Assembly (NCBI RefSeq): GCF_003018235.1
Contig: NZ_CP027437.1
Reading direction: 5' to 3' (one strand)
Length of the DNA stretch: 64,000 bases
From: Escherichia coli
GTDB lineage: Bacteria; Pseudomonadota; Gammaproteobacteria; Enterobacterales; Enterobacteriaceae
Part shown: piece after piece, positions 3,578 through 58,660 of the stretch
How positions within the stretch are numbered: position 1 is the stretch's first letter
How the letters are laid out: every line of letters starts with the position of its first letter
Notes under the pieces: model-generated
What the model saw: only the letters and a program-made list of their open reading frames with translations
The model's database searches: none
What the model was told of the DNA's origin: nothing
Program-made: the position numbers and the translations under genes

Positions 3578-3783
3578 AAAAAAAAGCACCGCAATTAGGC
3601 GGTGCTACATTAATCACTATGGACAGACAGGGTAAATGTACAGGAAGTGAAAAAAGGTAGCTTTGCTACCATGGTCTGAATCGCAGACCAATTGCAAACA
3701 CAACAACACAACATCACAACCGTAAGCCAAAAGTTCACCAGAACACGCATTCCGATAAAACTTTTCGTTCCGGCTCAGGAAGT
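3578..3783 (-). ncRNA. gcvB: GcvB small regulatory RNA (Hfq-dependent, represses amino-acid transporter mRNAs)
   Basis: The reverse complement of this interval reads ACTTCCTGAGCCGGAACGAAAAGTTTTATCGG...GT-rich stretch TGTGATGTTGTGTTGTTGTGTTTG...terminator hairpin GCACCGCCTAATTGCGGTGC followed by a T-run, matching the gcvB sequence as I remember it; it is divergent from gcvA as expected and 206 nt long. Confidence 0.9.
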
Positions 3784-22001: not shown

Positions 22002-22367
22002 GTCGACAGGGAGTCAGACAACGAAGTGAACATCAGGATGATGACACTTCTGAAGGACACACCAGGATGGTGTTTCAGGGAAAGGCTTCTGGATGAAGCG
22101 AAGAGGATGACGCAGGACGCGTTAAAGGACACCTCCAGGATGGAGAATGAGAACCGGTCAGGATGATTCGGTGGGTCAGGAAGGCTAGGGACACTTCAGG
22201 ATGAAGTATCACATCGGGGTGGTGTGAGCAGGAAGCAATAGTTCAGGATGAACGATTGGCCGCAAGGCCAGAGGAAAAGTTGTCAAGGATGAGCAGGGAG
22301 CAACAAAAGTAGCTGGAATGCTGCGAAACGAACCGGGAGCACTGTGAATACAGTGCTCCCTTTTTTT
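22002..22367 (+). ncRNA. csrB: CsrB regulatory RNA (CsrA-sequestering sRNA)
   Basis: About 365 nt with no long ORF, carrying roughly twenty GGA-containing motifs (I count about 22 by eye, many as CAGGATG), ending in hairpin GGGAGCACTG-TGAATA-CAGTGCTCCC plus T7. The 5' end is placed from my recollection of the csrB sequence. Confidence 0.88.
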
Positions 22368-22412
22368 ATTCCTGCTATCCTTCGCGGCAGTTTTTCTTAT
22401 TGAGGTTGCTTT

Positions 22413-27140: not shown

Positions 27141-28481
27141 ATGAGTTCTCAATTTACGACGCCTGTTGTTACTGAAATGCAGGTCATCCCGGTGGCGGGC
27201 CATGACAGTATGCTGATGAATCTGAGTGGTGCACACGCACCGTTCTTCACGCGTAATATTGTGATTATCAAAGATAATTCTGGTCACACCGGCGTAGGGG
27301 AAATTCCCGGCGGCGAGAAAATCCGTAAAACGCTGGAAGATGCGATTCCGCTAGTGGTGGGTAAAACGCTGGGTGAATACAAAAACGTTCTGACGCTGGT
27401 GCGTAATACATTTGCCGATCGTGATGCCGGCGGGCGCGGTTTGCAGACATTTGATTTGCGGACCACTATTCATGTGGTTACCGGTATAGAAGCGGCAATG
27501 CTGGATCTGCTGGGGCAGCATCTGGGGGTTAACGTGGCATCGCTGCTGGGCGATGGTCAACAGCGTAGCGAAGTCGAAATGCTCGGTTATCTGTTCTTCG
27601 TCGGTAATCGCAAAGCCACACCGCTTCCGTATCAAAGCCAGCCGGATGATAAATGTGACTGGTATCGCCTGCGTCACGAAGAAGCGATGACGCCGGATGC
27701 GGTGGTGCGCCTGGCGGAAGCGGCATATGAAAAATATGGCTTCAACGATTTCAAACTGAAGGGCGGTGTACTGGCCGGGGAAGAAGAAGCAGAATCTATT
27801 GTGGCACTGGCGCAACGCTTCCCACAGGCGCGTATTACCCTCGATCCTAACGGTGCCTGGTCGCTGAACGAAGCGATTAAAATTGGTAAATACCTGAAAG
27901 GTTCGCTGGCTTATGCAGAAGATCCGTGTGGTGCGGAGCAAGGTTTCTCCGGGCGTGAAGTGATGGCAGAGTTCCGTCGCGCGACTGGCCTGCCGACCGC
28001 AACCAATATGATCGCCACCGACTGGCGGCAGATGGGCCATACGCTCTCCCTGCAATCCGTTGATATCCCGCTGGCGGATCCGCATTTCTGGACGATGCAA
28101 GGTTCGGTACGTGTGGCGCAAATGTGCCATGAATTTGGCCTGACCTGGGGTTCACACTCTAACAACCACTTCGATATTTCCCTGGCGATGTTTACCCATG
28201 TAGCCGCTGCTGCACCGGGTAAAATTACTGCTATTGATACGCACTGGATCTGGCAGGAAGGCAATCAGCGTCTGACCAAAGAACCGTTTGAGATCAAAGG
28301 CGGGCTGGTACAGGTGCCGCAAAAACCAGGATTGGGCGTAGAAATCGATATGGATCAGGTGATGAAAGCCCACGAGCTGTATCAGAAACATGGGCTTGGT
28401 GCGCGTGACGATGCGATGGGAATGCAGTACCTGATTCCTGGCTGGACGTTTGATAACAAGCGCCCGTGCATGGTGCGTTAA
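27141..28481 (+). CDS. gudD: Glucarate dehydratase (enolase superfamily)
   Basis: Start placed at ATG 27141 ([18 protein letters not shown]...), 446 aa. Confidence 0.92.
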
Positions 28482-28494
28482 GACAGAAAACCAA

Positions 28495-28518
28495 AACCGG
28501 CTTCATAAGAAGTCGGTT
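28495..28518. terminator. Hairpin between convergent gudD and barA (possible bidirectional terminator)
   Basis: AACCGGCTTC-ATAA-GAAGTCGGTT stem-loop flanked by an A-tract on the plus strand (a U-tract for the minus-strand transcript). Confidence 0.4.
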
Positions 28519-28554
28519 TGAGATTACTGACGAAGTGGTTTACGGGGCCGGTTT

Positions 28555-28656
28555 TCCCCCTCGCCCTTTCAGGGAGAGGGGCGGGGTGAGGGTAATCATT
28601 CGCACTTGCGTTGGCCTGTTCCCCTCACCCTAACCCTCTCCCCGGAGGGGCGAGGG
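28555..28656. repeat. Pair of GC-rich inverted intergenic repeat units
   Basis: Unit A CCCCCTCGCCCTTTCAGGGAGAGGGGCGGGGTGAGGG (28555-28591) and unit B CCCCTCACCCTAACCCTCTCCCCGGAGGGGCGAGGG (28621-28656) are approximate reverse complements of each other, about 30 bp apart; I cannot assign them with certainty to a named repeat family. Confidence 0.5.
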
Positions 28657-28721
28657 GACTGTCTGTGCTGCTCCCAGCATTGGCATTGGACGGAACCTAT
28701 TTTGACTCGACAAGACGTCCA

Positions 28722-31478
28722 TTACCCGAGAATTTTGCTGGCTTCGCGCGCGACATTATCCATCTCGTCCAACAGTTCCAGCAGCTCCGGCTCCAAATCT
28801 TCTTCTTTAGTACCGCTACGTAGCTGTTGTTCGATCAGCTGGCAGAGATTCTTCATACGCGGCACACCGCTATAGCCGCAACTGCCATGCAGTTTATGAA
28901 TCAAATCAACCAGGCCTTCCGGGTTTTCTCCAACCAGCTGTTCCTCAACTTTGTTGCGAACTTCAGGCAGGAAATCGAGTAACATTTGCAGCATATCGCG
29001 CGCTAAATCGGTTTTTCCTGCTGCCTGGCGTAGTGCCAGTTGCCAGTCGAGGGTCGCATTCGGGTTCACCACAATTTCGTTGACTTCGGGCGTCACGACG
29101 CGAGAGGAAATACCGCTGCCAGGCTTGTAGCGCAACAGCAAATTATGCAATCGCTCTTCTTCAATCGGTTTCGCCAGATAATCGCTCATCCCTGCGCCAA
29201 GCAGCTTCTCTTTTTGCCCGGCCATTGCATGCGCCGTTACCGCGATAACCGGCGTTTGTTGCTGATGGGGGAGCTGGTGGATGAGTTCGCAGGCCCGAAT
29301 GCCGTCCATGTCCGGCATTTGAATATCCATTAAGATCAAATCGAACGGCATCTGTTTCGCCCGTTCAACCGCCTGATGCCCGCTATCGCAAAGTTCCACA
29401 TGTTGCACCATATCTTCCAGCAATGCGCCGATAAGTTTCAGGTTAGCGGGGTTGTCATCAACCGCCATGACTGTCATTGCCAGCTTACTTTCATCGGTTA
29501 CAGGCAAAAGCGTGTTTTGTTTGTGATGACAAAATTCCGTCAGGGCAGGTAACAGGCGCGTAGGTGTTAATGGTTTCAGCAGACACGCGCCGATACCATC
29601 TTGCTTAAGTTTTTCAGCATTGACTTGTGCATGGCAAGGAAGTGCCAGCATCAGAAAATCGGTCATCGATACCGCTTTCGCTAATCGCTCATGTTGCATT
29701 GTTAGCGGCTCGCGGAAGGTCACCGCAATGCCTAATAACATCATGTCGTAATGCGCGGGAGGCAGCGCGGAGAACGTTGGGCTATAAACCACTTCCAGCG
29801 GCGTTTCACTTAAAATATCCAGCGTGCATTGCGCTGCTGCGGAGTTTGGTTCGACATAGGCCAGGCGCTTGCCGGCGAGGCACTGGGTGGATGGCCCTTC
29901 GATAATAATGTTCGGATTCAGATCGAGATTAATGTGGAACCAGAAAGTTGAACCGCGATTCGGCTGGCTATGGAACGAAATATCGCCGCCCATTTCATTA
30001 ACCAGTTTTTGTGTAATCACCAGCCCCAGCCCGGTGCCACCATGACGGCGGGAAATACTGGCATCAGCCTGTCGGAAGGCCTGGAATAAGCGCGATTGAT
30101 CGCGTTCAGGAATACCAATGCCGGTATCCCGAATCTGCACTTCAATCTGCACTTTGGTATTACTCAGCGCACGTTTTTCTACCAGAATATCAATGTTGCC
30201 ATTCTCGGTGAATTTAATTGCATTCCCCACCAGGTTAGTGATGATTTGCTGTAATCGTAGTGGGTCGCCGATCACGTTATCAGGCACGTCGCTTTTAATA
30301 TTGAGCGTCAGTTCCAGCCCTTTATCGTGAGAAGAATGTGCCAGCAGGGTAACGACTTCATCCAGCGTGCTGCGTAGTGGGAATGGAATACTTTCCAGAA
30401 TCAGCTTACCGGCTTCCAGTTTCGAGAAGTCGAGAACATCATTAATAATTGCCAGCAAATTATTTGCCGAACGTTCAATCGTATTCAGGTGATCGCGCTG
30501 CGTTGGTGTTAATTCTGTTTTCAGCGTCAGGCGGGTAAAGCCAATAACACCATTCAGTGGTGTACGCAGCTCGTGTGACATATTTGCCAAAAACTCGGAT
30601 TTAATACGCGCCGCTTCCTGGGCGCGCTTTTTCGCCAGATCCAACTCAACGTTCTGAATTTCCATCTGCTCCAGCGTTTCACGCAGATCGGACGTCGCCT
30701 GGTCGATATTGTGCTGCATCTCTTCGTGATAAGCAGCCAGCGACATTGCCATCGAGTTGATACCGTTTTTCAGCATATCCAGCTCGCCGAGCATAAATCC
30801 TTCCACCCGGCTGTCGAGTTGCCCGCGACGGATGCGGTCGACGGTATTCACCATATTGCGAATCGGACCGGTTACATCGCGCATTAAGCGCCAGCCAAAA
30901 ATAAGCGCAATACCGATACAAAACAGCATCATCACGCTGGAAATAAAGATCTCTTTATATTGCTGCAAGCGAACCGATTTAAGATCCAGCTCAAGCGCAA
31001 TATATCCCAACATATTTTGACTATTTTTGGCATCGCTACTGGGCGATTCGTCGGGGGAGTAACTCTCAGAAATAATCGGTGTGCGGAGGATCATAATATC
31101 GCCGTCACGAGTGACAGTGAGCTGGCGAGGAAACGGCACGTTGCTGCCGAGCTGCATTGATGAGGGATCAAGATGAAAATTGGAGGTGACAAAGAGTCGA
31201 TTATTTTCATCATAAACCGAAATCGCGCGAACAATATCGGAATGGCGACGATGCAGTACGCTTATTAACTGACCGATAGATTCGCGATTTTGCAGGCTCA
31301 TGCCATATTCAGTAGAAACTGCAAGCGGCTCAATAATGCTGGCTCCGGCATCTTCCAGTTGACGCTGCAAGTCGTTATAGCGATGCACAACGAAAAAGAT
31401 ACTCAGCAATAAACCAATAAGGACGGTCGGTGCCAGGATCAGAATCATCATGCGTGCGCGCAGGCTGTAGTTGGTCAT
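28722..31478 (-). CDS. barA: Hybrid sensor histidine kinase BarA (tripartite HK with receiver and HPt domains)
   Basis: 918-aa ORF with two N-terminal TM segments, HAMP, HisKA (H-box SHELRTPLN), ATPase, receiver and HPt domains. Confidence 0.93.
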
Positions 31479-31534
31479 GGAGTTCCGTTATGGGACAATT
31501 AAGGTCACACTGTTAAATTGAGAAAGTCTCGCCA

Positions 31535-32836
31535 ATGGCGCAATTCTACTCTGCAAAACGACGCACGACGACGCGTCAGATCATAACCGTTTCAGTCAAC
31601 GACCTCGACTCTTTTGGTCAGGGCGTGGCGCGACATAACGGCAAAACGTTATTTATCCCCGGATTATTGCCGCAGGAAAACGCTGAAGTTACTGTTACTG
31701 AAGATAAAAAACAATACGCCCGCGCTAAAGTCGTACGCCGGTTAAGCGATAGCCCGGAACGCGAAACGCCACGCTGTCCTCATTTTGGCGTATGCGGCGG
31801 TTGTCAGCAACAACACGCCAGCGTGGATTTACAGCAGCGAAGCAAAAGTGCGGCACTCGCCCGATTAATGAAACACGAAGTCTCTGAAGTGATCGCCGAT
31901 GTTCCCTGGGGCTATCGCCGTCGCGCGCGTTTAAGTCTGAACTACTTACCGAAAACACAGCAACTTCAGATGGGGTTTCGCAAAGCGGGCTCCAGTGACA
32001 TTGTCGACGTTAAACAATGCCCCATTTTAGTGCCCCAACTTGAAGCATTGCTGCCCAAAGTCAGGGCATGCCTGGACAGCTTACAAGCTATGCGCCATCT
32101 TGGTCATGTTGAACTGGTACAGGCAACCAGCGGCACGCTGATGATTTTGCGCCATACCGCACCGCTAAGTTCGGCTGATCGCGAAAAACTGGAACGCTTT
32201 TCGCATTCTGAAGGCCTGGATCTGTATCTCGCCCCCGATAGTGAGATACTCGAAACCGTCGCTGGTGAGATGCCCTGGTATGACTCAAACGGGTTGCGCT
32301 TAACTTTTAGCCCGCGCGATTTTATTCAGGTCAATGCGGGTGTGAACCAAAAAATGGTAGCGCGTGCGTTGGAATGGCTGGATGTGCAACCTGAAGATCG
32401 CGTACTGGATCTGTTCTGCGGTATGGGCAACTTTACACTGCCATTGGCGACACAAGCTGCCAGTGTGGTGGGTGTAGAAGGCGTTCCGGCGCTGGTGGAA
32501 AAAGGCCAGCAGAATGCGCGTCTTAATGGCTTACACAATGTGACGTTTTATCACGAAAATCTTGAAGAAGATGTCACAAAGCAGCCGTGGGCGAAAAACG
32601 GCTTCGATAAAGTGTTGCTGGACCCGGCGCGAGCAGGTGCCGCAGGTGTTATGCAGCAAATTATAAAACTGGAACCTATTCGTATAGTTTATGTATCCTG
32701 TAACCCTGCAACGCTGGCTCGGGATAGCGAAGCGTTATTAAAAGCAGGATATACCATTGCGCGACTGGCGATGCTGGATATGTTCCCACACACGGGACAT
32801 CTGGAATCGATGGTACTTTTCTCGCGCGTTAAATAG
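31535..32836 (+). CDS. rlmD: 23S rRNA (uracil1939-C5)-methyltransferase
   Basis: 433-aa ORF with an N-terminal TRAM domain, a CxxxxxxCxxC cluster ([10 protein letters not shown]) and a SAM-MTase core. Confidence 0.9.
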
Positions 32837-32883
32837 TTACGATTTGCCGATTTCGGCAGGTCTGGTCCCTAAAGGAGAGGACG

Positions 32884-35118
32884 ATGGTTGCGGTAAGAAG
32901 TGCACATATCAATAAGGCTGGTGAATTTGATCCGGAAAAATGGATCGCAAGTCTGGGTATTACCAGCCAGAAGTCGTGTGAGTGCTTAGCCGAAACCTGG
33001 GCGTATTGTCTGCAACAGACGCAGGGGCATCCGGATGCCAGTCTGTTATTGTGGCGTGGTGTTGAGATGGTGGAGATCCTCTCGACATTAAGTATGGACA
33101 TTGACACGCTGCGGGCGGCGCTGCTGTTCCCTCTGGCCGATGCCAACGTAGTCAGCGAAGATGTGCTGCGTGAGAGCGTCGGTAAGTCGGTCGTTAACCT
33201 TATTCACGGTGTGCGTGATATGGCGGCGATCCGCCAGCTGAAAGCGACGCATACCGATTCTGTTTCCTCCGAACAGGTCGATAACGTTCGCCGGATGTTA
33301 TTGGCGATGGTCGATGATTTTCGCTGCGTGGTCATCAAACTGGCAGAGCGTATTGCTCATCTGCGCGAAGTAAAAGACGCGCCGGAAGATGAACGCGTAC
33401 TGGCGGCAAAAGAGTGCACCAATATCTACGCGCCGTTGGCGAACCGTCTTGGGATTGGACAACTGAAATGGGAGCTGGAAGATTACTGCTTCCGTTATCT
33501 CCACCCGACCGAATACAAACGCATCGCAAAACTGCTGCATGAACGCCGTCTCGACCGCGAACACTATATCGAAGAGTTTGTCGGTCATCTGCGCGCTGAG
33601 ATGAAAGCTGAAGGCGTTAAAGCTGAAGTGTATGGTCGTCCGAAACACATCTACAGCATCTGGCGCAAAATGCAGAAAAAGAACCTCGCCTTCGATGAGC
33701 TGTTTGATGTGCGTGCGGTACGTATTGTCGCCGAGCGTTTACAGGATTGTTATGCCGCACTGGGGATAGTGCACACTCACTATCGCCACCTGCCGGATGA
33801 GTTTGACGATTACGTCGCTAACCCGAAACCAAACGGTTATCAGTCTATTCATACCGTGGTTCTGGGACCAGGTGGCAAAACCGTAGAGATCCAAATCCGC
33901 ACCAAACAGATGCATGAAGATGCAGAGTTGGGTGTTGCTGCGCACTGGAAATATAAAGAAGGCGCGGCAGCTGGCGGCGCACGTTCGGGACATGAAGACC
34001 GAATTGCCTGGCTGCGTAAACTGATTGCGTGGCAGGAAGAGATGGCTGATTCCGGCGAAATGCTCGACGAAGTACGCAGCCAGGTCTTTGACGACCGGGT
34101 GTATGTCTTTACGCCGAAAGGTGATGTCGTTGATTTGCCTGCGGGATCAACACCGCTGGACTTCGCTTACCACATCCACAGTGATGTCGGACACCGCTGC
34201 ATCGGGGCAAAAATTGGCGGGCGCATTGTGCCGTTCACCTACCAGCTGCAGATGGGCGACCAGATTGAAATTATCACCCAGAAACAGCCGAACCCCAGCC
34301 GTGACTGGTTAAACCCAAACCTCGGTTACGTCACAACCAGCCGTGGGCGTTCGAAAATTCACGCCTGGTTCCGTAAACAGGACCGTGACAAAAACGTTCT
34401 GGCTGGGCGGCAAATCCTTGACGACGAGCTGGAACATCTGGGGATCAGCCTGAAAGAAGCAGAAAAACATCTGCTGCCGCGTTACAACTTCAATGATGTC
34501 GACGAGTTGCTGGCGGCGATTGGTGGCGGGGATATCCGTCTCAATCAGATGGTGAACTTCCTGCAATCGCAATTTAATAAGCCGAGTGCCGAAGAGCAGG
34601 ACGCCGCCGCGCTGAAGCAACTTCAGCAAAAAAGCTACACGCCGCAAAACCGCAGTAAAGATAACGGTCGTGTGGTGGTTGAAGGTGTCGGTAACCTGAT
34701 GCACCACATCGCGCGCTGCTGCCAGCCGATTCCTGGAGATGAGATTGTCGGCTTCATTACCCAGGGACGCGGTATTTCAGTACACCGCGCCGATTGCGAA
34801 CAACTGGCGGAACTGCGCTCCCATGCGCCAGAACGCATTGTTGACGCGGTATGGGGTGAGAGCTACTCCGCCGGATATTCGCTGGTGGTCCGCGTGGTGG
34901 CTAATGATCGTAGTGGGTTGTTACGTGATATCACGACCATTCTTGCCAACGAGAAGGTGAACGTACTTGGCGTTGCCAGCCGTAGCGACACCAAACAGCA
35001 ACTGGCGACTATCGACATGACCATTGAGATTTACAATCTGCAAGTGCTGGGCCGCGTGCTGGGTAAACTCAATCAGGTGCCAGACGTTATCGACGCGCGT
35101 CGGTTGCACGGGAGTTAG
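32884..35118 (+). CDS. relA: GTP pyrophosphokinase, (p)ppGpp synthetase I
   Basis: 744-aa ORF with RelA/SpoT synthetase, TGS and ACT domains. Confidence 0.93.
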   Translation: MVAVRSAHINKAGEFDPEKWIASLGITSQKSCECLAETWAYCLQQTQGHPDASLLLWRGVEMVEILSTLSMDIDTLRAALLFPLADANVVSEDVLRESVGKSVVNLIHGVRDMAAIRQLKATHTDSVSSEQVDNVRRMLLAMVDDFRCVVIKLAERIAHLREVKDAPEDERVLAAKECTNIYAPLANRLGIGQLKWELEDYCFRYLHPTEYKRIAKLLHERRLDREHYIEEFVGHLRAEMKAEGVKAEVYGRPKHIYSIWRKMQKKNLAFDELFDVRAVRIVAERLQDCYAALGIVHTHYRHLPDEFDDYVANPKPNGYQSIHTVVLGPGGKTVEIQIRTKQMHEDAELGVAAHWKYKEGAAAGGARSGHEDRIAWLRKLIAWQEEMADSGEMLDEVRSQVFDDRVYVFTPKGDVVDLPAGSTPLDFAYHIHSDVGHRCIGAKIGGRIVPFTYQLQMGDQIEIITQKQPNPSRDWLNPNLGYVTTSRGRSKIHAWFRKQDRDKNVLAGRQILDDELEHLGISLKEAEKHLLPRYNFNDVDELLAAIGGGDIRLNQMVNFLQSQFNKPSAEEQDAAALKQLQQKSYTPQNRSKDNGRVVVEGVGNLMHHIARCCQPIPGDEIVGFITQGRGISVHRADCEQLAELRSHAPERIVDAVWGESYSAGYSLVVRVVANDRSGLLRDITTILANEKVNVLGVASRSDTKQQLATIDMTIEIYNLQVLGRVLGKLNQVPDVIDARRLHGS

Positions 35119-35133
35119 GCCGAAATTAGCTCG

Positions 35134-35178
35134 TATCTACAATGTAGATTGATATATACTGTATCTACATATGATAGC
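35134..35178 (+). promoter_or_regulatory. mazEF promoter region with the alternating palindrome
   Basis: TATCTACAATGTAGATTGATATATACTGTATCTACATATGATAGC just upstream of mazE; overlapping palindromic arms are characteristic of the autoregulated mazEF P2 promoter. Confidence 0.6.
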
Positions 35179-35195
35179 GGTTTGAGGAAAGGGTT

Positions 35196-35444
35196 ATGAT
35201 CCACAGTAGCGTAAAGCGTTGGGGAAATTCACCGGCGGTGCGGATCCCGGCTACGTTAATGCAGGCGCTCAATCTGAATATTGATGATGAAGTGAAGATT
35301 GACCTGGTGGATGGCAAATTAATTATTGAGCCAGTACGTAAAGAGCCCGTATTTACGCTTGCTGAACTGGTCAACGACATCACGCCGGAAAACCTCCACG
35401 AGAATATCGACTGGGGGGAGCCGAAAGATAAGGAAGTCTGGTAA
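35196..35444 (+). CDS. mazE: Type II antitoxin MazE
   Basis: 82-aa ORF (AbrB/SpoVT-like fold), overlapping the mazF start. Confidence 0.92.
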
Positions 35445-35779
35445 TGGTAAGCCGATACGTACCCGATATGGGCGATCTGATTTGGGTTGATTTTGACCCG
35501 ACAAAAGGTAGCGAGCAAGCCGGACATCGTCCGGCTGTTGTCCTGAGTCCGTTCATGTACAACAACAAAACAGGTATGTGTCTGTGTGTTCCTTGTACAA
35601 CGCAATCAAAAGGATATCCGTTCGAAGTTGTTTTATCCGGTCAGGAACGTGATGGCGTAGCGTTAGCTGATCAGGTAAAAAGTATCGCCTGGCGGGCAAG
35701 AGGAGCAACGAAGAAAGGAACGGTTGCCCCAGAGGAATTACAGCTCATTAAAGCCAAAATTAACGTGCTGATTGGGTAG
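35444..35779 (+). CDS. mazF: Type II toxin MazF (ACA-specific mRNA interferase)
   Basis: 111-aa ORF of the PemK/MazF family. Confidence 0.92.
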   Translation: MVSRYVPDMGDLIWVDFDPTKGSEQAGHRPAVVLSPFMYNNKTGMCLCVPCTTQSKGYPFEVVLSGQERDGVALADQVKSIAWRARGATKKGTVAPEELQLIKAKINVLIG

Positions 35780-35850
35780 GTGTTACTAACTCACTTCTAT
35801 TCTGGTCACAGGTTTCCACCTGACAGACCCGCAATTTTCAGGACATTCTA

Positions 35851-36642
35851 ATGAATCAAATCGACCGTTTGCTCACTATTATGCAGCGCCTGCGCGACCC
35901 GGAAAACGGCTGCCCGTGGGATAAAGAGCAGACATTTGCCACCATTGCACCTTACACCCTTGAAGAAACCTACGAAGTGCTGGACGCTATTGCCCGTGAA
36001 GATTTTGACGATCTGCGCGGTGAACTCGGCGATCTACTGTTCCAGGTGGTTTTTTACGCACAAATGGCCCAGGAAGAAGGGCGCTTTGATTTTAATGATA
36101 TTTGCGCCGCGATTAGCGATAAATTAGAACGTCGCCATCCGCATGTTTTTGCTGACAGTTCTGCCGAAAACAGTAGTGAAGTGCTTGCCCGTTGGGAGCA
36201 AATCAAAACCGAAGAGCGCGCGCAGAAAGCGCAGCATTCGGCGCTGGACGATATTCCTCGTAGTTTACCAGCCTTAATGCGTGCACAAAAAATCCAGAAA
36301 CGTTGCGCCAACGTTGGTTTTGACTGGACGACGCTTGGTCCGGTAGTCGATAAAGTCTACGAAGAGATCGACGAGGTGATGTACGAGGCACGGCAGGCTG
36401 TTATCGACCAGGCTAAACTGGAGGAGGAAATGGGCGACCTGCTGTTTGCCACGGTCAATCTGGCTCGTCATTTAGGGACAAAAGCGGAAATCGCATTGCA
36501 AAAAGCGAACGAAAAATTCGAGCGTCGTTTTCGCGAAGTGGAGCGTATTGTTGCCGCGCGTGGACTGGAAATGACAGGTGTTGACCTCGAAACAATGGAA
36601 GAAGTCTGGCAACAGGTAAAACGGCAGGAAATTGATCTCTAA
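35851..36642 (+). CDS. mazG: Nucleoside triphosphate pyrophosphohydrolase MazG
   Basis: 263-aa ORF with tandem MazG domains. Confidence 0.92.
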   Translation: MNQIDRLLTIMQRLRDPENGCPWDKEQTFATIAPYTLEETYEVLDAIAREDFDDLRGELGDLLFQVVFYAQMAQEEGRFDFNDICAAISDKLERRHPHVFADSSAENSSEVLARWEQIKTEERAQKAQHSALDDIPRSLPALMRAQKIQKRCANVGFDWTTLGPVVDKVYEEIDEVMYEARQAVIDQAKLEEEMGDLLFATVNLARHLGTKAEIALQKANEKFERRFREVERIVAARGLEMTGVDLETMEEVWQQVKRQEIDL

Positions 36643-36854
36643 GGGAATTACGTGGTCAAGCGCGATTTGTGTCATTTTTTAAATGACAAGCGCTTGATTT
36701 GCGTCAAAAACATTTACCCCAAAGGGGCTATTTTCTCACTCCTGATTTCAATAGTGCGCTGGCGAAGAGGAGGGATAATGAAAGTTTGTGGCACAGGTCA
36801 TGTTCGGGTATACTGCTTTCCCGTCCTGGTTATTCCATCGTCTTTTCAACCTAA

Positions 36855-38507
<1,653 letters not shown>

Positions 38508-38526
38508 GTAAAAAAGTTAGAACGGC

Positions 38527-38549
38527 AACGCGTACCCTGGGTACGCGTT
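38527..38549 (+). terminator. Intercistronic hairpin between pyrG and eno (possible partial terminator or processing site)
   Basis: AACGCGTACCC-TGG-GTACGCGTT perfect palindrome followed by GTTTGT, located 20 bp after the pyrG stop. Confidence 0.4.
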
Positions 38550-38579
38550 GTTTGTCTGGAGTTTCAGTTTAACTAGTGA

Positions 38580-39893
<1,314 letters not shown>

Positions 39894-39913
39894 GTCTGAC
39901 TTTATCTGATTTA

Positions 39914-39943
39914 AAAATGCCAGCCTTCGGGCTGGCATTTTTT
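39914..39943. terminator. Bidirectional intrinsic terminator between eno and ygcG
   Basis: AAAATGCCAGCC-TTCG-GGCTGGCATTTTTT: a GC stem with A-tract and T-tract flanks serving both convergent genes. Confidence 0.65.
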
Positions 39944-39952
39944 ATGGTTGAG

Positions 39953-40825
39953 TTACCAGCGACCGGACGCGCCGCCACCGCCAGAAGAACCGCCCCCGCC
40001 GCTAAATCCGCCGCCACTTGAGCCGCCACCGGAACCGCTGTTGTCTGAATGATAACTTCTACCAGATGCTTTTTTCTGAAGTACACATAAACAGGTAAAG
40101 ACCATAATGGTGGTGAAAGTAAAAAAGAAGAAAAATACAGCAATGGAAAAAGTTTTATCGGAGAACAGGAATAAATCTAAAAGATAGATTGCTGAAATAC
40201 AGACACTGCTTTTACATGCGCGACAAAAATTACTGCCTTGATGAAAAAACCAGAAAGGGAAGAACATCACTGCAAATACCCAAAAAATAGCAAAGTAGTA
40301 ATGATCGCTGGAATACGCTGATTCACTTTCTGAAGGATTAGCCGAATATTGGTGTTGTGAAGTGAGTTGGTTATTTAAAGCGATTATAGCTAACTCTAAT
40401 CCCTTAGCTAATTTTTGTTGTTTAAATGCGGGTATCATGTTGCTACGGATGATATCTCCAGCCAGAGCATCGGTTACCTTTTCTTCCAGCCCATAACCTA
40501 CCTGGATGCGGACAGCACGATCCGACAAGGCAACAATGATCAGTATCCCATCATTGCGTTTGGCATCTCCTAAACGCCAATTGTTAAAAACCCTTGTAGC
40601 ATATTGTTCAATTGTCTCGTCTTTGGTTGTGGGAATAATTAATACAGCAATTTGTACTTGGGTATTATTGAAAATAGATTCTAACTTCCGCGTCAGTTCT
40701 TTCTTTTCTTGTGAGTTTAAGCTACTCGTAAGATCCGTAACTTGTTGCTGTAATGATGGGACAATAGTTGGTTGGGCTGCAACAAAGGAACACACGAATG
40801 TAAACATTAGTATGAAATAGCGCAT
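39953..40825 (-). CDS. ygcG: TPM-domain membrane protein with a Gly/Ser-rich C-terminal tail
   Basis: Track ORF of 313 aa; start placed at [11 protein letters not shown]... (about 290 aa) giving a signal peptide; TPM/phosphatase-like domain, TM segments and a [22 protein letters not shown] tail. Confidence 0.8.
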
Positions 40826-41118
40826 TATAAATTTCTCATTAAATCTGGATAAATAAATTGACGGCGGCATCGGTAATTTGAGATTCGTTATCATTAAAAA
40901 CGAACACAGAAAAAATAAATATAAATTTGGTGAATGTTTTTGACATGATTAAATCCCTTTACTTTATTTATTTCTGACATAATACGTTACTCCCTTTTAT
41001 TATTAACGATCTGTTTCTCATTTTTCTTTAAACCTGCCTGTAACAGAATGTTAATAAGACATGATTGTTGTGGCAGGATCTGCAATAATTAACAATTATC
41101 CACTTCACAGAGAATGCT

Positions 41119-41790
41119 ATGCAGTACCCGATTAACGAGATGTTCCAGACCCTGCAAGGTGAGGGTTACTTTACCGGCGTCCCCGCTATTTTTATTCGTT
41201 TACAGGGATGCCCGGTCGGCTGTGCCTGGTGCGACACCAAACACACATGGGAAAAGCTTGAGGATCGGGAAGTTTCCCTTTTCAGCATTCTGGGTAAAAC
41301 GAAAGAGAGTGATAAGTGGGGAGCAGCAAGCAGTGAAGACTTACTCGCAGTCATCGGTCGTCAGGGATACACCGCGCGTCACGTGGTGATTACGGGTGGT
41401 GAGCCTTGCATTCATGATTTGCTACCACTGACTGATCTGCTCGAAAAGAACGGTTTTAGCTGCCAGATCGAAACCAGTGGTACTCATGAGGTACGCTGCA
41501 CACCGAATACCTGGGTTACCGTATCACCAAAGCTGAACATGCGCGGCGGCTATGAAGTGTTGTCACAGGCACTGGAGCGAGCCAACGAAATCAAGCATCC
41601 AGTGGGACGCGTACGTGATATTGAAGCACTGGATGAACTTTTGGCGACGCTGACCGATGATAAACCGCGAGTCATTGCACTGCAGCCGATTAGCCAAAAG
41701 GATGATGCCACACGATTGTGCATTGAAACCTGCATTGCGCGTAATTGGCGTTTGTCGATGCAAACACATAAATATCTAAATATTGCCTGA
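41119..41790 (+). CDS. queE: 7-carboxy-7-deazaguanine synthase (radical SAM)
   Basis: 223-aa ORF with a CxxxCxxC-type cluster (CPVGCAWC). Confidence 0.92.
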   Translation: MQYPINEMFQTLQGEGYFTGVPAIFIRLQGCPVGCAWCDTKHTWEKLEDREVSLFSILGKTKESDKWGAASSEDLLAVIGRQGYTARHVVITGGEPCIHDLLPLTDLLEKNGFSCQIETSGTHEVRCTPNTWVTVSPKLNMRGGYEVLSQALERANEIKHPVGRVRDIEALDELLATLTDDKPRVIALQPISQKDDATRLCIETCIARNWRLSMQTHKYLNIA

Positions 41791-42129
41791 TTAAACATTT
41801 ATAAGCGTTATAAATGGGTGGAACCTGTAAAGATTTCTACTCATTTATATTGTTTGTCGCCTCTGAAAACTCCTCCATTTTACCCATCCAGGGCTAATCA
41901 TTAGCATTCTCTACAAATTCTGCGGCATTAATTTTTCGCTGGAGTGAAAATTATTGCGGTAAAGTTTGGTAGATTTTAGTCGGTATAGGATTACTTTAAA
42001 TATTTAGCTTTTCAATCAATGAATTAAGTGCTCTTTAACATAATGGATGTGTTGTTTGTGTGATACTGTAAAGTTGGTAGATTGTGACTGGCTTAAAAAA
42101 TCATTAATTAATAATAGGTTATGTTTAGA
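41791..42129 (+). promoter_or_regulatory. AT-rich CRISPR leader
   Basis: About 340 bp of very AT-rich non-coding DNA ending ...TAATAGGTTATGTTTAGA immediately before the first repeat, the arrangement typical of type I-E leaders. Confidence 0.6.
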
Positions 42130-42438
42130 GAGTTCCCCGCGCGAGCGGGGATAAACCGGCCGTCGCCGGATCAGCCTGGCTATGCCAGCAGAGTTCCCCG
42201 CGCCAGCGGGGATAAACCGGACGAACAAAATAAAAACCAACTGAATGATGCGAGTTCCCCGCGCCAGCGGGGATAAACCGCGAACCCTTGAACCGATAAG
42301 GGCGCTGTTTTGGAGTTCCCCGCGCCAGCGGGGATAAACCGGATAGGTGTTACACATATGACCTGGCACTGGCGAGTTTCCCGCGCCAGCGGGGATAACC
42401 ATTCAGGTATGTTCAGGCCGGGCAGTTTCCCGCCCGGC
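42130..42438 (+). CRISPR. Orphan CRISPR array with type I-E 29-bp repeats (5 repeats, 4 x 32-bp spacers, plus a degenerate terminal unit)
   Basis: Repeats GAGTTCCCCGCGCCAGCGGGGATAAACCG at 42130-42158 (one C-to-G change), 42191-42219, 42252-42280, 42313-42341, and a degenerate 42374-42401; spacers at 42159-42190, 42220-42251, 42281-42312, 42342-42373. A further partial repeat-like GTTTCCCGCCCGGCC lies at 42425-42439 within a GC hairpin. No cas gene occurs in the window. Confidence 0.9.
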
Positions 42439-42447
42439 CTTCCTCAC

Positions 42448-43925
42448 TTACGCATTCGACCAGCTCTGGATCGAATCCGCATTCCCCAATTCCCCATGCA
42501 TCACTTCATACGATTTTTTCAGGATTACATCAGTATGTTTGGTTAACTCCTTGAAAATGCTTTTATTCATCGCGTCGTAGCGTTTGGCACTGTTCTCAAC
42601 AGGCATAAAGATATCTTTCACGCGAACCATTTTGTCGACAGCCGTTGCGTAATCCGGGTATAGCCCCAGACCTACCGCCGTATTAATCGCTGCCCCCAGA
42701 CTTGCACAACCATTAATGGCGTTACGGCGTGCCGGAAGGTTGAACACGTCGGCAAAAATCTGCATAAACAGATCGCTGTTCGAACCGCCGCCAGTAATGA
42801 TCACATGCTTTGCAAAGTGATTCATTTCATTACACATATTGTCGTAATTGTTCTTCAGCGTCAGGCCACGCTTTCCAGTATCGAACGATATATCCATGCG
42901 TAATCCATGCTGGAATCAAAGCCAATCATAATCCCGCGTTTGTACGGTTCCCACGGATTGGTCAGCCAGTCCAGCACCGTCATCAGACCATTACAGCCTG
43001 GCGGCACACAAGACGCTTTTTTGTTGAGCAAATCTTCCGGTGAAAGATCCTGTGCTTTGGCATCCTGAATTAACGACTCGCCTAACATGTCGCGTAGCCA
43101 GCTCACCGTCCACATGCCTTTGCGAATACCGTAACCTTCATACAGCAAGGTTTGCGGAATAGAAGACATAATCGGCCAGTACGCTACCGGATCTTTCGGT
43201 AGTAATTTGCCGTTCATCATCAACGCGATGTAAGTGCCAAGAGAAATTACCGCAGTTTCATCATCCAGTAACCCGGCTCCCAGTGCTTCTACCGGTTTAT
43301 CACTGGTGGTACAAACAACCGGCAGCCCAGCCGGGAAATGTGTCGCCAGCGCGGCTTGAGGAGTGATATGCCCAAGAACAGTGCCCGGCATTTGCACATC
43401 AAACAGCATATGACGGGGGATATTAAACTTCTCCATGACTGCGGCATCTTCACTCCATGCCCAGGTCTTATAATCCACCGGCCACTGACCAAAATAGTTG
43501 GCGATATTGTCTTTAAACTCGCCGGTTAAGCGATGCGTCAGATAACCTGAAAAAGAGGTGACATATGCCACGTCAGGATTCGTATGTTCGTAAGGGCGTG
43601 TAACGCGTGCATCCTGCCAGCTAATCAACGGCGCAGCTGGCGTGCCATCGGCTTTCAATAACGCACGGCAGCAACGGATGGATCCCAGACCAATACCGAC
43701 AATATCTTCTTTATTCCCGGCAAACTGACTCATCAAATCGTGACCGGCAAAACATAATGATGCCCATAAATCGTCGTCAGGATGTTCTGCGGTATCGGCA
43801 TCTGGCGTGTGCATCGGCTGCAATAAGCCTTTGCCTTCGCAAACCACATTACCTTCCAGATCATACATCACCACTTTTGTGCTCTGACTTCCGCCATCAA
43901 TCCCTATGATGTATTTTTTCGACAT
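42448..43925 (-). pseudogene. ygcE: FGGY-family sugar kinase split by an apparent frameshift
   Basis: N-terminal 354 codons (42861..43925) and C-terminal 149-codon ORF (42448..42897) are in different frames. The N-frame ends ...AWIYRSILESVA-stop and the other frame continues ...LTLKNNYDNMCNE...ITGGGSNSDLF, both matching conserved FGGY kinase regions, so the switch lies near 42861-42867 (GGCC run). Confidence 0.7.
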
Positions 43926-43951
43926 GATTTTTCTCCTGTAATTTTCTGGAC

Positions 43952-45229
43952 TTACTTGCTGCTAGCCATAGCAGGGGCGCTATCAGCAGTACGAATTTTT
44001 TGGAACAGCAAAAAGGTAAAGACGATCACCATGGCAAGCGCCGCCATGCCCATCAGCCACATATTGCGGTAGGCTTCTGCAGCGGGCAGGGTGTCTTGCC
44101 AGTAGCCGATAATCGGGTAAACGAAGACATCCGGCAGGAATCCAATCACCGAACAAATACCTACCGTGGTGCCCATAATGTAAGACGGTGTTCTCGCTTC
44201 GCCAGGGCAGGCCCAGTACAGCCCGCGTGAGGCGTAACAGGTGAATCCCAGCAGTAAAATCAGGCCAATCCCCATCGCGACCGATTGCGGGTTAGAGTTC
44301 GTGACGAGCAGGGCAGTTAACGCCAGCAAGCCGAGTACGGAAAGGATTTGGATCACGCGGGTAGGGGATTTCACTTTGCTGTAAGTGGTGATAATGCCGC
44401 CAAGCGGACCGCACAGTGCGCGGAAGATTTTGTTGATCACAATCCCCATGTAGCTCGCCGCCACCAGCGACATACCGTACATTTCGGTCAGATAGTTGGT
44501 GGAGTAACTCAGAATGGCGTAGATGGTGAAGACACCAAAAATCACCATGCTGCAATACCAGGTGGTGCTGATGCGCAAAACGGCCAGGATGTCGCTAAGC
44601 TGGAATGACTGTTTTTCTTCGTTATTGGTATTGCGTAGGTTGTTGTTATCGCTAACAAAAAACCAACACAAAATGCCCAGCAGAATGTAAACCACACTAT
44701 AGATAATAATGACCGTTTTCAGGCTGGCGCTGTCATCCGGTGCAAAGCGAGAAAAGACCCACATGGTAAACACCGCCAGCGACATTACACCGACGCCGCG
44801 CAGCCCTTCCATCCAGCCCATAATTTTCCCTTGCTCGCTATGATCGCCCAGCAACGATGCGGCTTTAATCGACACCGACCACAGCATTAAAATCGTCGTT
44901 ATCGCAAAGGCGACCTGAATACAGAGCATTACCCACAGCGGTGGATATGTTGCCATTAACAGACCCAGTAATCCGGTAATGATCATCGCGGAAGTAATCA
45001 TTTTGCGGTGTGAAAATTTATCGGCAATAACGCCGCTGGGGGCATAAAGAATAATAGCCGCAATACCAAAGGTACTCATTATTAAACCTATCTCGGTATT
45101 GCTGAATCCCATAAATTTCGCCATGGGAATTTGATAAATATAACGTAAATAAGCCAGGTCGAAACTAACGCCGCCGCTAAAACTAATTATCGCGAGGGTT
45201 ATCCAACGGCGATATGAGTTGTGTTGCAT
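43952..45229 (-). CDS. yqcE: MFS transporter
   Basis: 425-aa polytopic membrane ORF in the same orientation as ygcE. Confidence 0.85.
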   Translation of the reverse strand: MQHNSYRRWITLAIISFSGGVSFDLAYLRYIYQIPMAKFMGFSNTEIGLIMSTFGIAAIILYAPSGVIADKFSHRKMITSAMIITGLLGLLMATYPPLWVMLCIQVAFAITTILMLWSVSIKAASLLGDHSEQGKIMGWMEGLRGVGVMSLAVFTMWVFSRFAPDDSASLKTVIIIYSVVYILLGILCWFFVSDNNNLRNTNNEEKQSFQLSDILAVLRISTTWYCSMVIFGVFTIYAILSYSTNYLTEMYGMSLVAASYMGIVINKIFRALCGPLGGIITTYSKVKSPTRVIQILSVLGLLALTALLVTNSNPQSVAMGIGLILLLGFTCYASRGLYWACPGEARTPSYIMGTTVGICSVIGFLPDVFVYPIIGYWQDTLPAAEAYRNMWLMGMAALAMVIVFTFLLFQKIRTADSAPAMASSK

Positions 45230-58298: not shown

Positions 58299-58507
58299 TG
58301 CGAGCAGCATTCCTGATTTTAAACGTGAACGCCGCTGGAAGAATCAACAGGTATAGAATGGTGTCGGGTGCTTGAGGCTGTCTGGCGTTAAGCATTCGCG
58401 AGGTTCCAGATGGACAAAAGCCCCAGGCGATATTTCTATCAACCTGAGGCCAGCGTTCGAACCCAAACAATTCGAATGTTAGTCTCTTCTTTGCAGGGAG
58501 GCAAGAC

Positions 58508-58660
58508 ATGCTGACAAAATATGCCCTTGTGGCAATCATAGTGCTGTGTTTTACAGTACTGGGATTCACGCTGATGGTAGGCGACTCGTTGTGTGAGTTG
58601 AGTATCAGAGAACGTGGTATGGAGTTTAAGGCAGTTCTCGCTTACGAATCGAAGAAGTAG
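58508..58660 (+). CDS. hokX: Hok-family type I toxin (small membrane-depolarising peptide), positionally the hokX/sokX locus
   Basis: 50-codon ORF absent from the ORF track (under 60 aa): [50 protein letters not shown], with a single TM helix, the Hok signature DSLCE and C-terminal AYES; Shine-Dalgarno GGAGG 6 nt upstream. The symbol is inferred from position next to cysH. Confidence 0.8.

Follow-up and report, generated by a model that had tools for sequence, protein, structure and literature searches.

The mazEF module lies between relA and mazG in the 64-kb stretch of Escherichia coli DNA analyzed here, to which we refer as the window. All five genes from relA to pyrG are on the plus strand, with the antitoxin gene placed first and the toxin gene directly downstream. 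The features of the locus are as follows, with their basis in brackets.

32884-35118, plus strand: relA, 744 aa, upstream neighbor (ORF list, Pfam, K-12 annotation)
35085-35484, minus strand: position homologous to aMEF (ameF, b4844) (K-12 annotation 2911051-2911450 mapped by alignment)
35118-35132, no strand assigned: 15-mer similar to the Fis consensus, on the upstream side of the operator (consensus match of the K-12 allele)
about 35119-35817, plus strand: mazEF cassette, present in some genomes and missing from others, between relA and mazG (alignment to mazEF-less genomes)
35130-35179, plus strand: mazEF operator 'cab', three MazE-dimer sites ('c', 'a' and 'b') including the alternating palindrome (match to a published oligonucleotide)
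35196-35444, plus strand: mazE, antitoxin, 82 aa (ORF list; Pfam, NCBIfam, K-12 identity)
35444-35779, plus strand: mazF, toxin, 111 aa, ACA-specific endoribonuclease (ORF list; Pfam, NCBIfam, K-12 identity)
35851-36642, plus strand: mazG, nucleoside triphosphate pyrophosphohydrolase, 263 aa, downstream neighbor (ORF list, Pfam, NCBIfam)
36870-38507, plus strand: pyrG (ORF list)

The initial annotation had recognized a type II toxin-antitoxin module with relA directly upstream and mazG downstream. Family matches, ORF coordinates and complete protein identity with K-12 bear out the first statement, and the positions of the relA end (35118) and the mazG start (35851) bear out the second. MazE combines an N-terminal AbrB/MazE-type (swapped-hairpin) DNA-binding domain with a C-terminal MazF-binding tail and matches the Pfam family PF04014 (MazE_antitoxin) with 52.9 bits, while MazF matches PF02452 (PemK_toxin) with 84.8 bits against a cutoff of 23.1. 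The NCBIfam equivalog models give 196.2 bits for MazE (NF007312, cutoff 113) and 227.4 bits for MazF (NF007386, cutoff 120). In alignments to E. coli K-12 MG1655, 82 of 82 residues are the same as in b2783 and 111 of 111 the same as in b2782. Both proteins are also full-length, near-perfect matches to solved E. coli structures: PDB 1MVF, 1UB4 and 2MRN for MazE; 3NFC, 5CK9 and 1UB4 for MazF. Entry 1UB4 is reportedly that of Kamada et al. 2003. The translations retain the key residues W9, N11 and R16 of MazE, which bind DNA (PMC4803016), and E24, R29 and T52 of MazF, the first of which is replaced in E24A, the inactive MazF mutant used in PMC5888573.

The window pair has the PemK/MazF toxin fold and the AbrB-type antitoxin family in common with chromosomal chpBIK (ChpS/ChpB) and plasmid pemIK/parD (Kis/Kid). 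A chpB or pemK paralog was rejected on NCBIfam scores (34.6 against the ChpS cutoff of 101; 55.2 against the ChpB cutoff of 129): since the MazE and MazF equivalog cutoffs are far exceeded and those of ChpS and ChpB far missed, the pair represents mazEF proper. We also rejected a pseudogene or decayed copy, the reading frames being intact and identical to those of K-12 at the protein level; mazE and mazF contain no frameshift, no premature stop and no substitution of a catalytic or DNA-binding residue. RefSeq annotates the 761-bp stretch as relA/mazE/mazF/mazG, and at least 80% of it is covered in 4,415 of 5,426 complete E. coli genomes. We found no sequence evidence against this identity: the locus is almost certainly the canonical chromosomal mazEF (chpA) module of E. 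coli, intact and protein-identical to K-12. As such it is already known and fully described. The arrangement had indeed been called a known one, and every defining sequence feature is present in the same form as in the reference. Compared with K-12 mazEF (chpAI/chpAK; b2783/b2782), the proteins, the 50-bp 'cab' operator, the stop-start junction, the 77-bp length of the spacer and the relA and mazG neighbors are all the same.

The junction of the two genes differs slightly from its earlier description. A Shine-Dalgarno sequence, GAGG, precedes mazE at 35185-35188. The mazE stop codon (TAA, 35442-35444) and the mazF start codon (ATG, 35444-35446) have a single base in common in the sequence TAATG; the overlap thus measures 1 nt, at 35444, rather than one codon, and the antitoxin-first order is associated with TAATG coupling.

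The relA-mazE spacer occupies 77 bp (35119-35195); position 35127, at which the module had been said to begin, has no special meaning. A repeat search in the spacer returned three operator arms, ATCTACA at 35135-35141, TGTAGAT at 35143-35149 and ATCTACA at 35163-35169 (35170 if the following T is included), along with a central palindrome, ATATAT, at 35152-35157. The latter falls inside site 'a', TTGATATATACTGT, at 35149-35162. The middle arm is able to pair with either of the outer arms; this corresponds to the 'alternating palindrome' that PMC4803016 summarizes from Marianovsky et al. 2001. When the 77-nt spacer was shuffled 20,000 times with its dinucleotides preserved, a direct-inverted-direct triple of 7-mers arose just 7 times, so that the alternating palindrome exceeds chance expectation. 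The overlapping palindromic operator reported before mazE is thus recovered with its arms and central palindrome. Its proposed span, 35134-35178, was close to that of the published 'cab' fragment, 35130-35179, where 50 of the 51 nt of the oligonucleotide (Zorzini et al. 2015, PMC4333400) match the window and the lone mismatch is the last base of the oligonucleotide.

Since the operator is the same as that of K-12, base for base, and the same as the 'cab' sequence, there is no operator variant here. Variation in the operator arms or in the active site had been singled out as worth seeking; alignment to K-12 and comparison of haplotypes returned no such variant in the window. Three further natural haplotypes carry spacer changes at 35121, 35126, 35176 and 35193, all of which leave the arms untouched. 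From its sequence, this region may be taken as the MazE autoregulatory operator, with binding of MazE predicted. Folding of the relA-mazE and mazF-mazG spacers as RNA yields a stability no better than that of shuffled sequences (z = -0.39 and -0.46, respectively), which gives no sign of an RNA element and leaves the palindrome as a DNA operator. An Rfam scan likewise returned no match in the mazEF region.

The P2/P3 promoter-operator of K-12 mazEF is said to have been described by Marianovsky et al. 2001. Neither of these published promoters was recovered in the window by a simple sigma-70 consensus scan, whose sole match in the spacer overlaps the start codon. P2 and P3 lie 13 nt apart (PMC4803016), and the sequence suggests TATACT (35155-35160) and TATGAT (35170-35175) as candidate -10 hexamers for the two.

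The spacer differs from K-12 at a single position, 35128 (A in the window, T in K-12), which precedes the 'cab' fragment by two bases. This position falls in the 15-mer at 35118-35132. The K-12 form of the 15-mer, GGCCGAAATTTGCTC, fits perfectly the degenerate sequence GNNYRNNWNNYRNNC, which we take to be the Fis consensus, and the window allele has one mismatch to it, at position 11 (35128). A second perfect match, at 35106-35120, is unaffected by the change. This consensus is a loose one: per position and strand it is matched at a rate of about 0.0014, and the 64-kb window contains 178 perfect matches. We regard 35118-35132 as a possible position of the published Fis activation site, a lead and not a result. 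The T-to-A change at 35128 could affect Fis activation or promoter strength. Among 4,418 complete E. coli genomes with mazEF, 342 (about 8%) carry exactly the 77-nt spacer of the window, A at 35128 included, which makes it a standing natural minority allele.

The initial annotation was incomplete in that it overlooked aMEF, an antisense RNA known from the K-12 annotation and from PMC8749433. The homologous region in the window lies opposite the whole of mazE and the operator, as well as 41 nt at the start of mazF and 34 nt at the end of relA, in antisense orientation. In the published work, aMEF starts inside mazF, measures about 400 nt and was seen solely in an RNase III mutant; it raises MazE and MazF levels and favors a monocistronic mazE transcript, and its promoter is weak and poorly conserved (PMC8749433). 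Relative to K-12, the transcribed region differs in the window at four positions (35085, 35128, 35336 and 35417), and the 75-bp promoter fragment, which precedes the annotated 5' end of the RNA, contains three synonymous differences (35521, 35533 and 35551, that is, -37, -49 and -67). No Rfam family covering aMEF was returned by the scan. In the source strain aMEF is putative, by virtue of its homologous position to K-12. On the same strand, a 146-aa open frame (35165-35605) runs antisense to mazE and mazF and partially overlaps the aMEF region; nothing points to its being a gene.

Elsewhere in the window, a hok-like locus had been proposed as a second toxin-antitoxin system. An Rfam sok match and a Hok-like ORF at 58366-58660 confirm it:

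58366-58523, plus strand: sok, Rfam RF01794 (111 bits)
58508-58660, plus strand: Hok-like ORF, 50 aa, between cysH-like and iap-like ORFs (ORF list)

This hok/sok-type locus is a type I toxin-antitoxin system. The Rfam scan also located the small RNAs CsrB (22011-22370, plus strand, 380.9 bits) and GcvB (3578-3783, minus strand, 199 bits).

At the nucleotide level, mazEF of the window differs from that of K-12 by eight synonymous substitutions, two in mazE and six in mazF. One of them, at 35722, turns mazF codon 93 from ACA into ACG, leaving eight ACA sites in mazF rather than nine; at sites of this kind the toxin reportedly cuts the mRNA that encodes it (PMC5888573). The mazF-mazG spacer has one extra base and three substitutions. 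Each of the flanking proteins shows a sole amino acid difference from K-12, I505V in RelA and V185I in MazG. Separately, a common alternative mazEF allele, found in APEC O1 and 2015C-4136CT1, combines MazF M9T and an unchanged MazE with a spacer altered at window positions 35126 and 35176.

We may ask whether these differences amount to an allele with altered MazE:MazF expression dynamics, through the joint effect of the 35128 T-to-A change, in what may be the Fis site or the -35-proximal region, the missing ACA site in mazF and the three substitutions of the aMEF promoter fragment. We consider this quite improbable. A decayed or silenced copy, present in the sequence yet unexpressed or non-toxic in the source strain, would find some support in the 35128 substitution, located in the putative Fis/promoter-upstream region, and in the synonymous changes of the aMEF promoter fragment. 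However, the reading frames are intact and their products equal the active K-12 proteins; the operator, the Shine-Dalgarno sequences and the coupling are unchanged; and the spacer with A at 35128 is common to the 342 genomes mentioned above. Silencing or decay of the module is, in our view, extremely improbable, and we retain an intact, canonical mazEF.

Because the proteins and the operator are identical to those of K-12, the mechanism worked out in K-12 would apply here by inference (PMC4333400, PMC5888573, PMC4803016, PMC8749433, PMC7167474). On this basis, mazE and mazF would be co-transcribed from the P2 and P3 promoters in the 77-bp spacer, possibly also by read-through from relA, and their translation would be coupled via TAATG. 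MazE dimers would occupy sites 'c', 'a' and 'b' across the alternating palindrome and repress the promoter; MazF would strengthen the binding of MazE to the operator, so that the complex would repress its own synthesis (PMC4333400). Fis, bound upstream, would modestly activate transcription (PMC4803016), and aMEF, started inside mazF, may tune the ratio of mazE to mazEF transcripts. MazE is expected to be labile through degradation by ClpAP and Lon. Once its synthesis stops, free MazF dimers would cut single-stranded RNA at ACA (PMC5888573), the mazEF mRNA included, and translation would be inhibited. Cleavage at ACA by MazF, its neutralization by MazE and the lability of MazE are thus predicted from the 100% protein identity to K-12.

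What purpose this mechanism serves is another matter: the physiological role of mazEF is disputed (PMC7167474). Proposed roles include ppGpp-linked cell death, reversible stasis, phage defense and selfish insertion, among which sequence cannot decide. The distribution of the module nonetheless bears on its relationship with its neighbors. About 19% of complete E. coli genomes are missing mazEF. Among the complete genomes matching the flanks, 4,415 of 5,425 contain the whole region and most others match 60% of the query, with relA followed by mazG. In the mazEF-less genomes, the alignment breaks off at the relA stop codon and picks up again at about 35818, with about 60 bp of unrelated sequence in between, which delimits a cassette of about 35119-35817. 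The mazEF-less allele (UTI89 in PMC7167474; GN05652 here) has relA and mazG flanks homologous to those of the window; in GN05652, a 95-bp relA-mazG spacer stands in place of the window's cassette of about 700 bp. This 95-bp spacer (799-893 of the GN05652 stretch) contains a hairpin with a 12-bp stem after relA (-33.3 kcal/mol, z = -5.8), without counterpart in the window; the hairpin could be a terminator or REP-like element that was replaced by the mazEF cassette. In a further genome, NZ_CM129852.1, the match runs only from inside mazF onward, at two separate places, which suggests a disrupted mazEF, possibly by insertion.

The flanks and the module also diverge to different degrees. Divergence from K-12 is 8/584 bp in mazEF, 59/2,235 bp in relA and 30/792 bp in mazG. 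The 761-bp mazEF core is 100% identical to that of three genomes, VCSW7, VCSW5 and 18KM2445. In VCSW7, differences from the window cluster on either side, at 34600-35099 (23 sites in 500 bp of relA) and 35850-36099 (10 sites in 250 bp of mazG). Over the 16 kb from 28000 to 44000, the best identity among 5,426 complete E. coli genomes is not above 98.1%. We interpret the 28000-44000 region, from these comparisons, as a recombination mosaic.

The module had been described as embedded in the relA-mazG operon. The context is correct; mazEF, as judged from the genome survey and PMC7167474, is an accessory insertion and no fixed part of that operon. The latter work has already described the polymorphism, citing UTI89, and argues that the relA-mazG operon is functional in its own right and that mazEF came into it by insertion. 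A functional tie to the stringent response has been put forward in the Engelberg-Kulka/Glaser model, in which RelA-made ppGpp silences transcription from the mazEF promoter, MazE is then lost by decay, programmed cell death is carried out by MazF, and MazG keeps the process in check; relA-mazEFG would then be a designed regulatory unit. The order relA-mazE-mazF-mazG is as this model, described in PMC1626106 and PMC4803016, would have it, and we detected no terminator-like site on the plus strand in the relA-mazE or mazF-mazG gaps. However, in the 19% or so of complete genomes without mazEF, relA is directly followed by mazG. In such strains the relA-mazG operon is undisturbed; no functional link was found, and the claims of cell death are contested (PMC7167474). 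The presence/absence pattern, together with the mosaic divergence, argues against an obligatory link between mazEF and relA, and we hold both the stringent-response tie and the designed unit to be unlikely. Inserted into the relA-mazG spacer as an accessory element, mazEF has no required functional link to either neighbor.

An accessory insertion of this kind may act mainly as an anti-phage (abortive-infection) element or as a selfish, addictive cassette, whose place beside relA would be an accident of insertion. Several observations are in keeping with this reading: the segment that is present or absent is sharply delimited, by the relA stop codon on one side and by about 35818 on the other; mazEF is less diverged from K-12 than are its relA and mazG flanks; and the core is 100% identical to that of strains whose flanks are 4-5% different, a pattern compatible with horizontal exchange. 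Native mazEF has been described as moderately protective against RNA phages (PMC12151602), and PMC7167474 cites a role in defense against phage P1. Yet the reported protection is modest, and no mobile-element genes or repeats lie beside the cassette in the window. We give this reading about an even chance. It concerns the biological role of the module and does not conflict with the canonical molecular mechanism of mazEF.

The useful outcome of this analysis is negative: this much-studied module presents no variant of the operator or the active site to pursue. The small allele differences represent common standing variation, which may be of interest for natural variation in mazEF expression.
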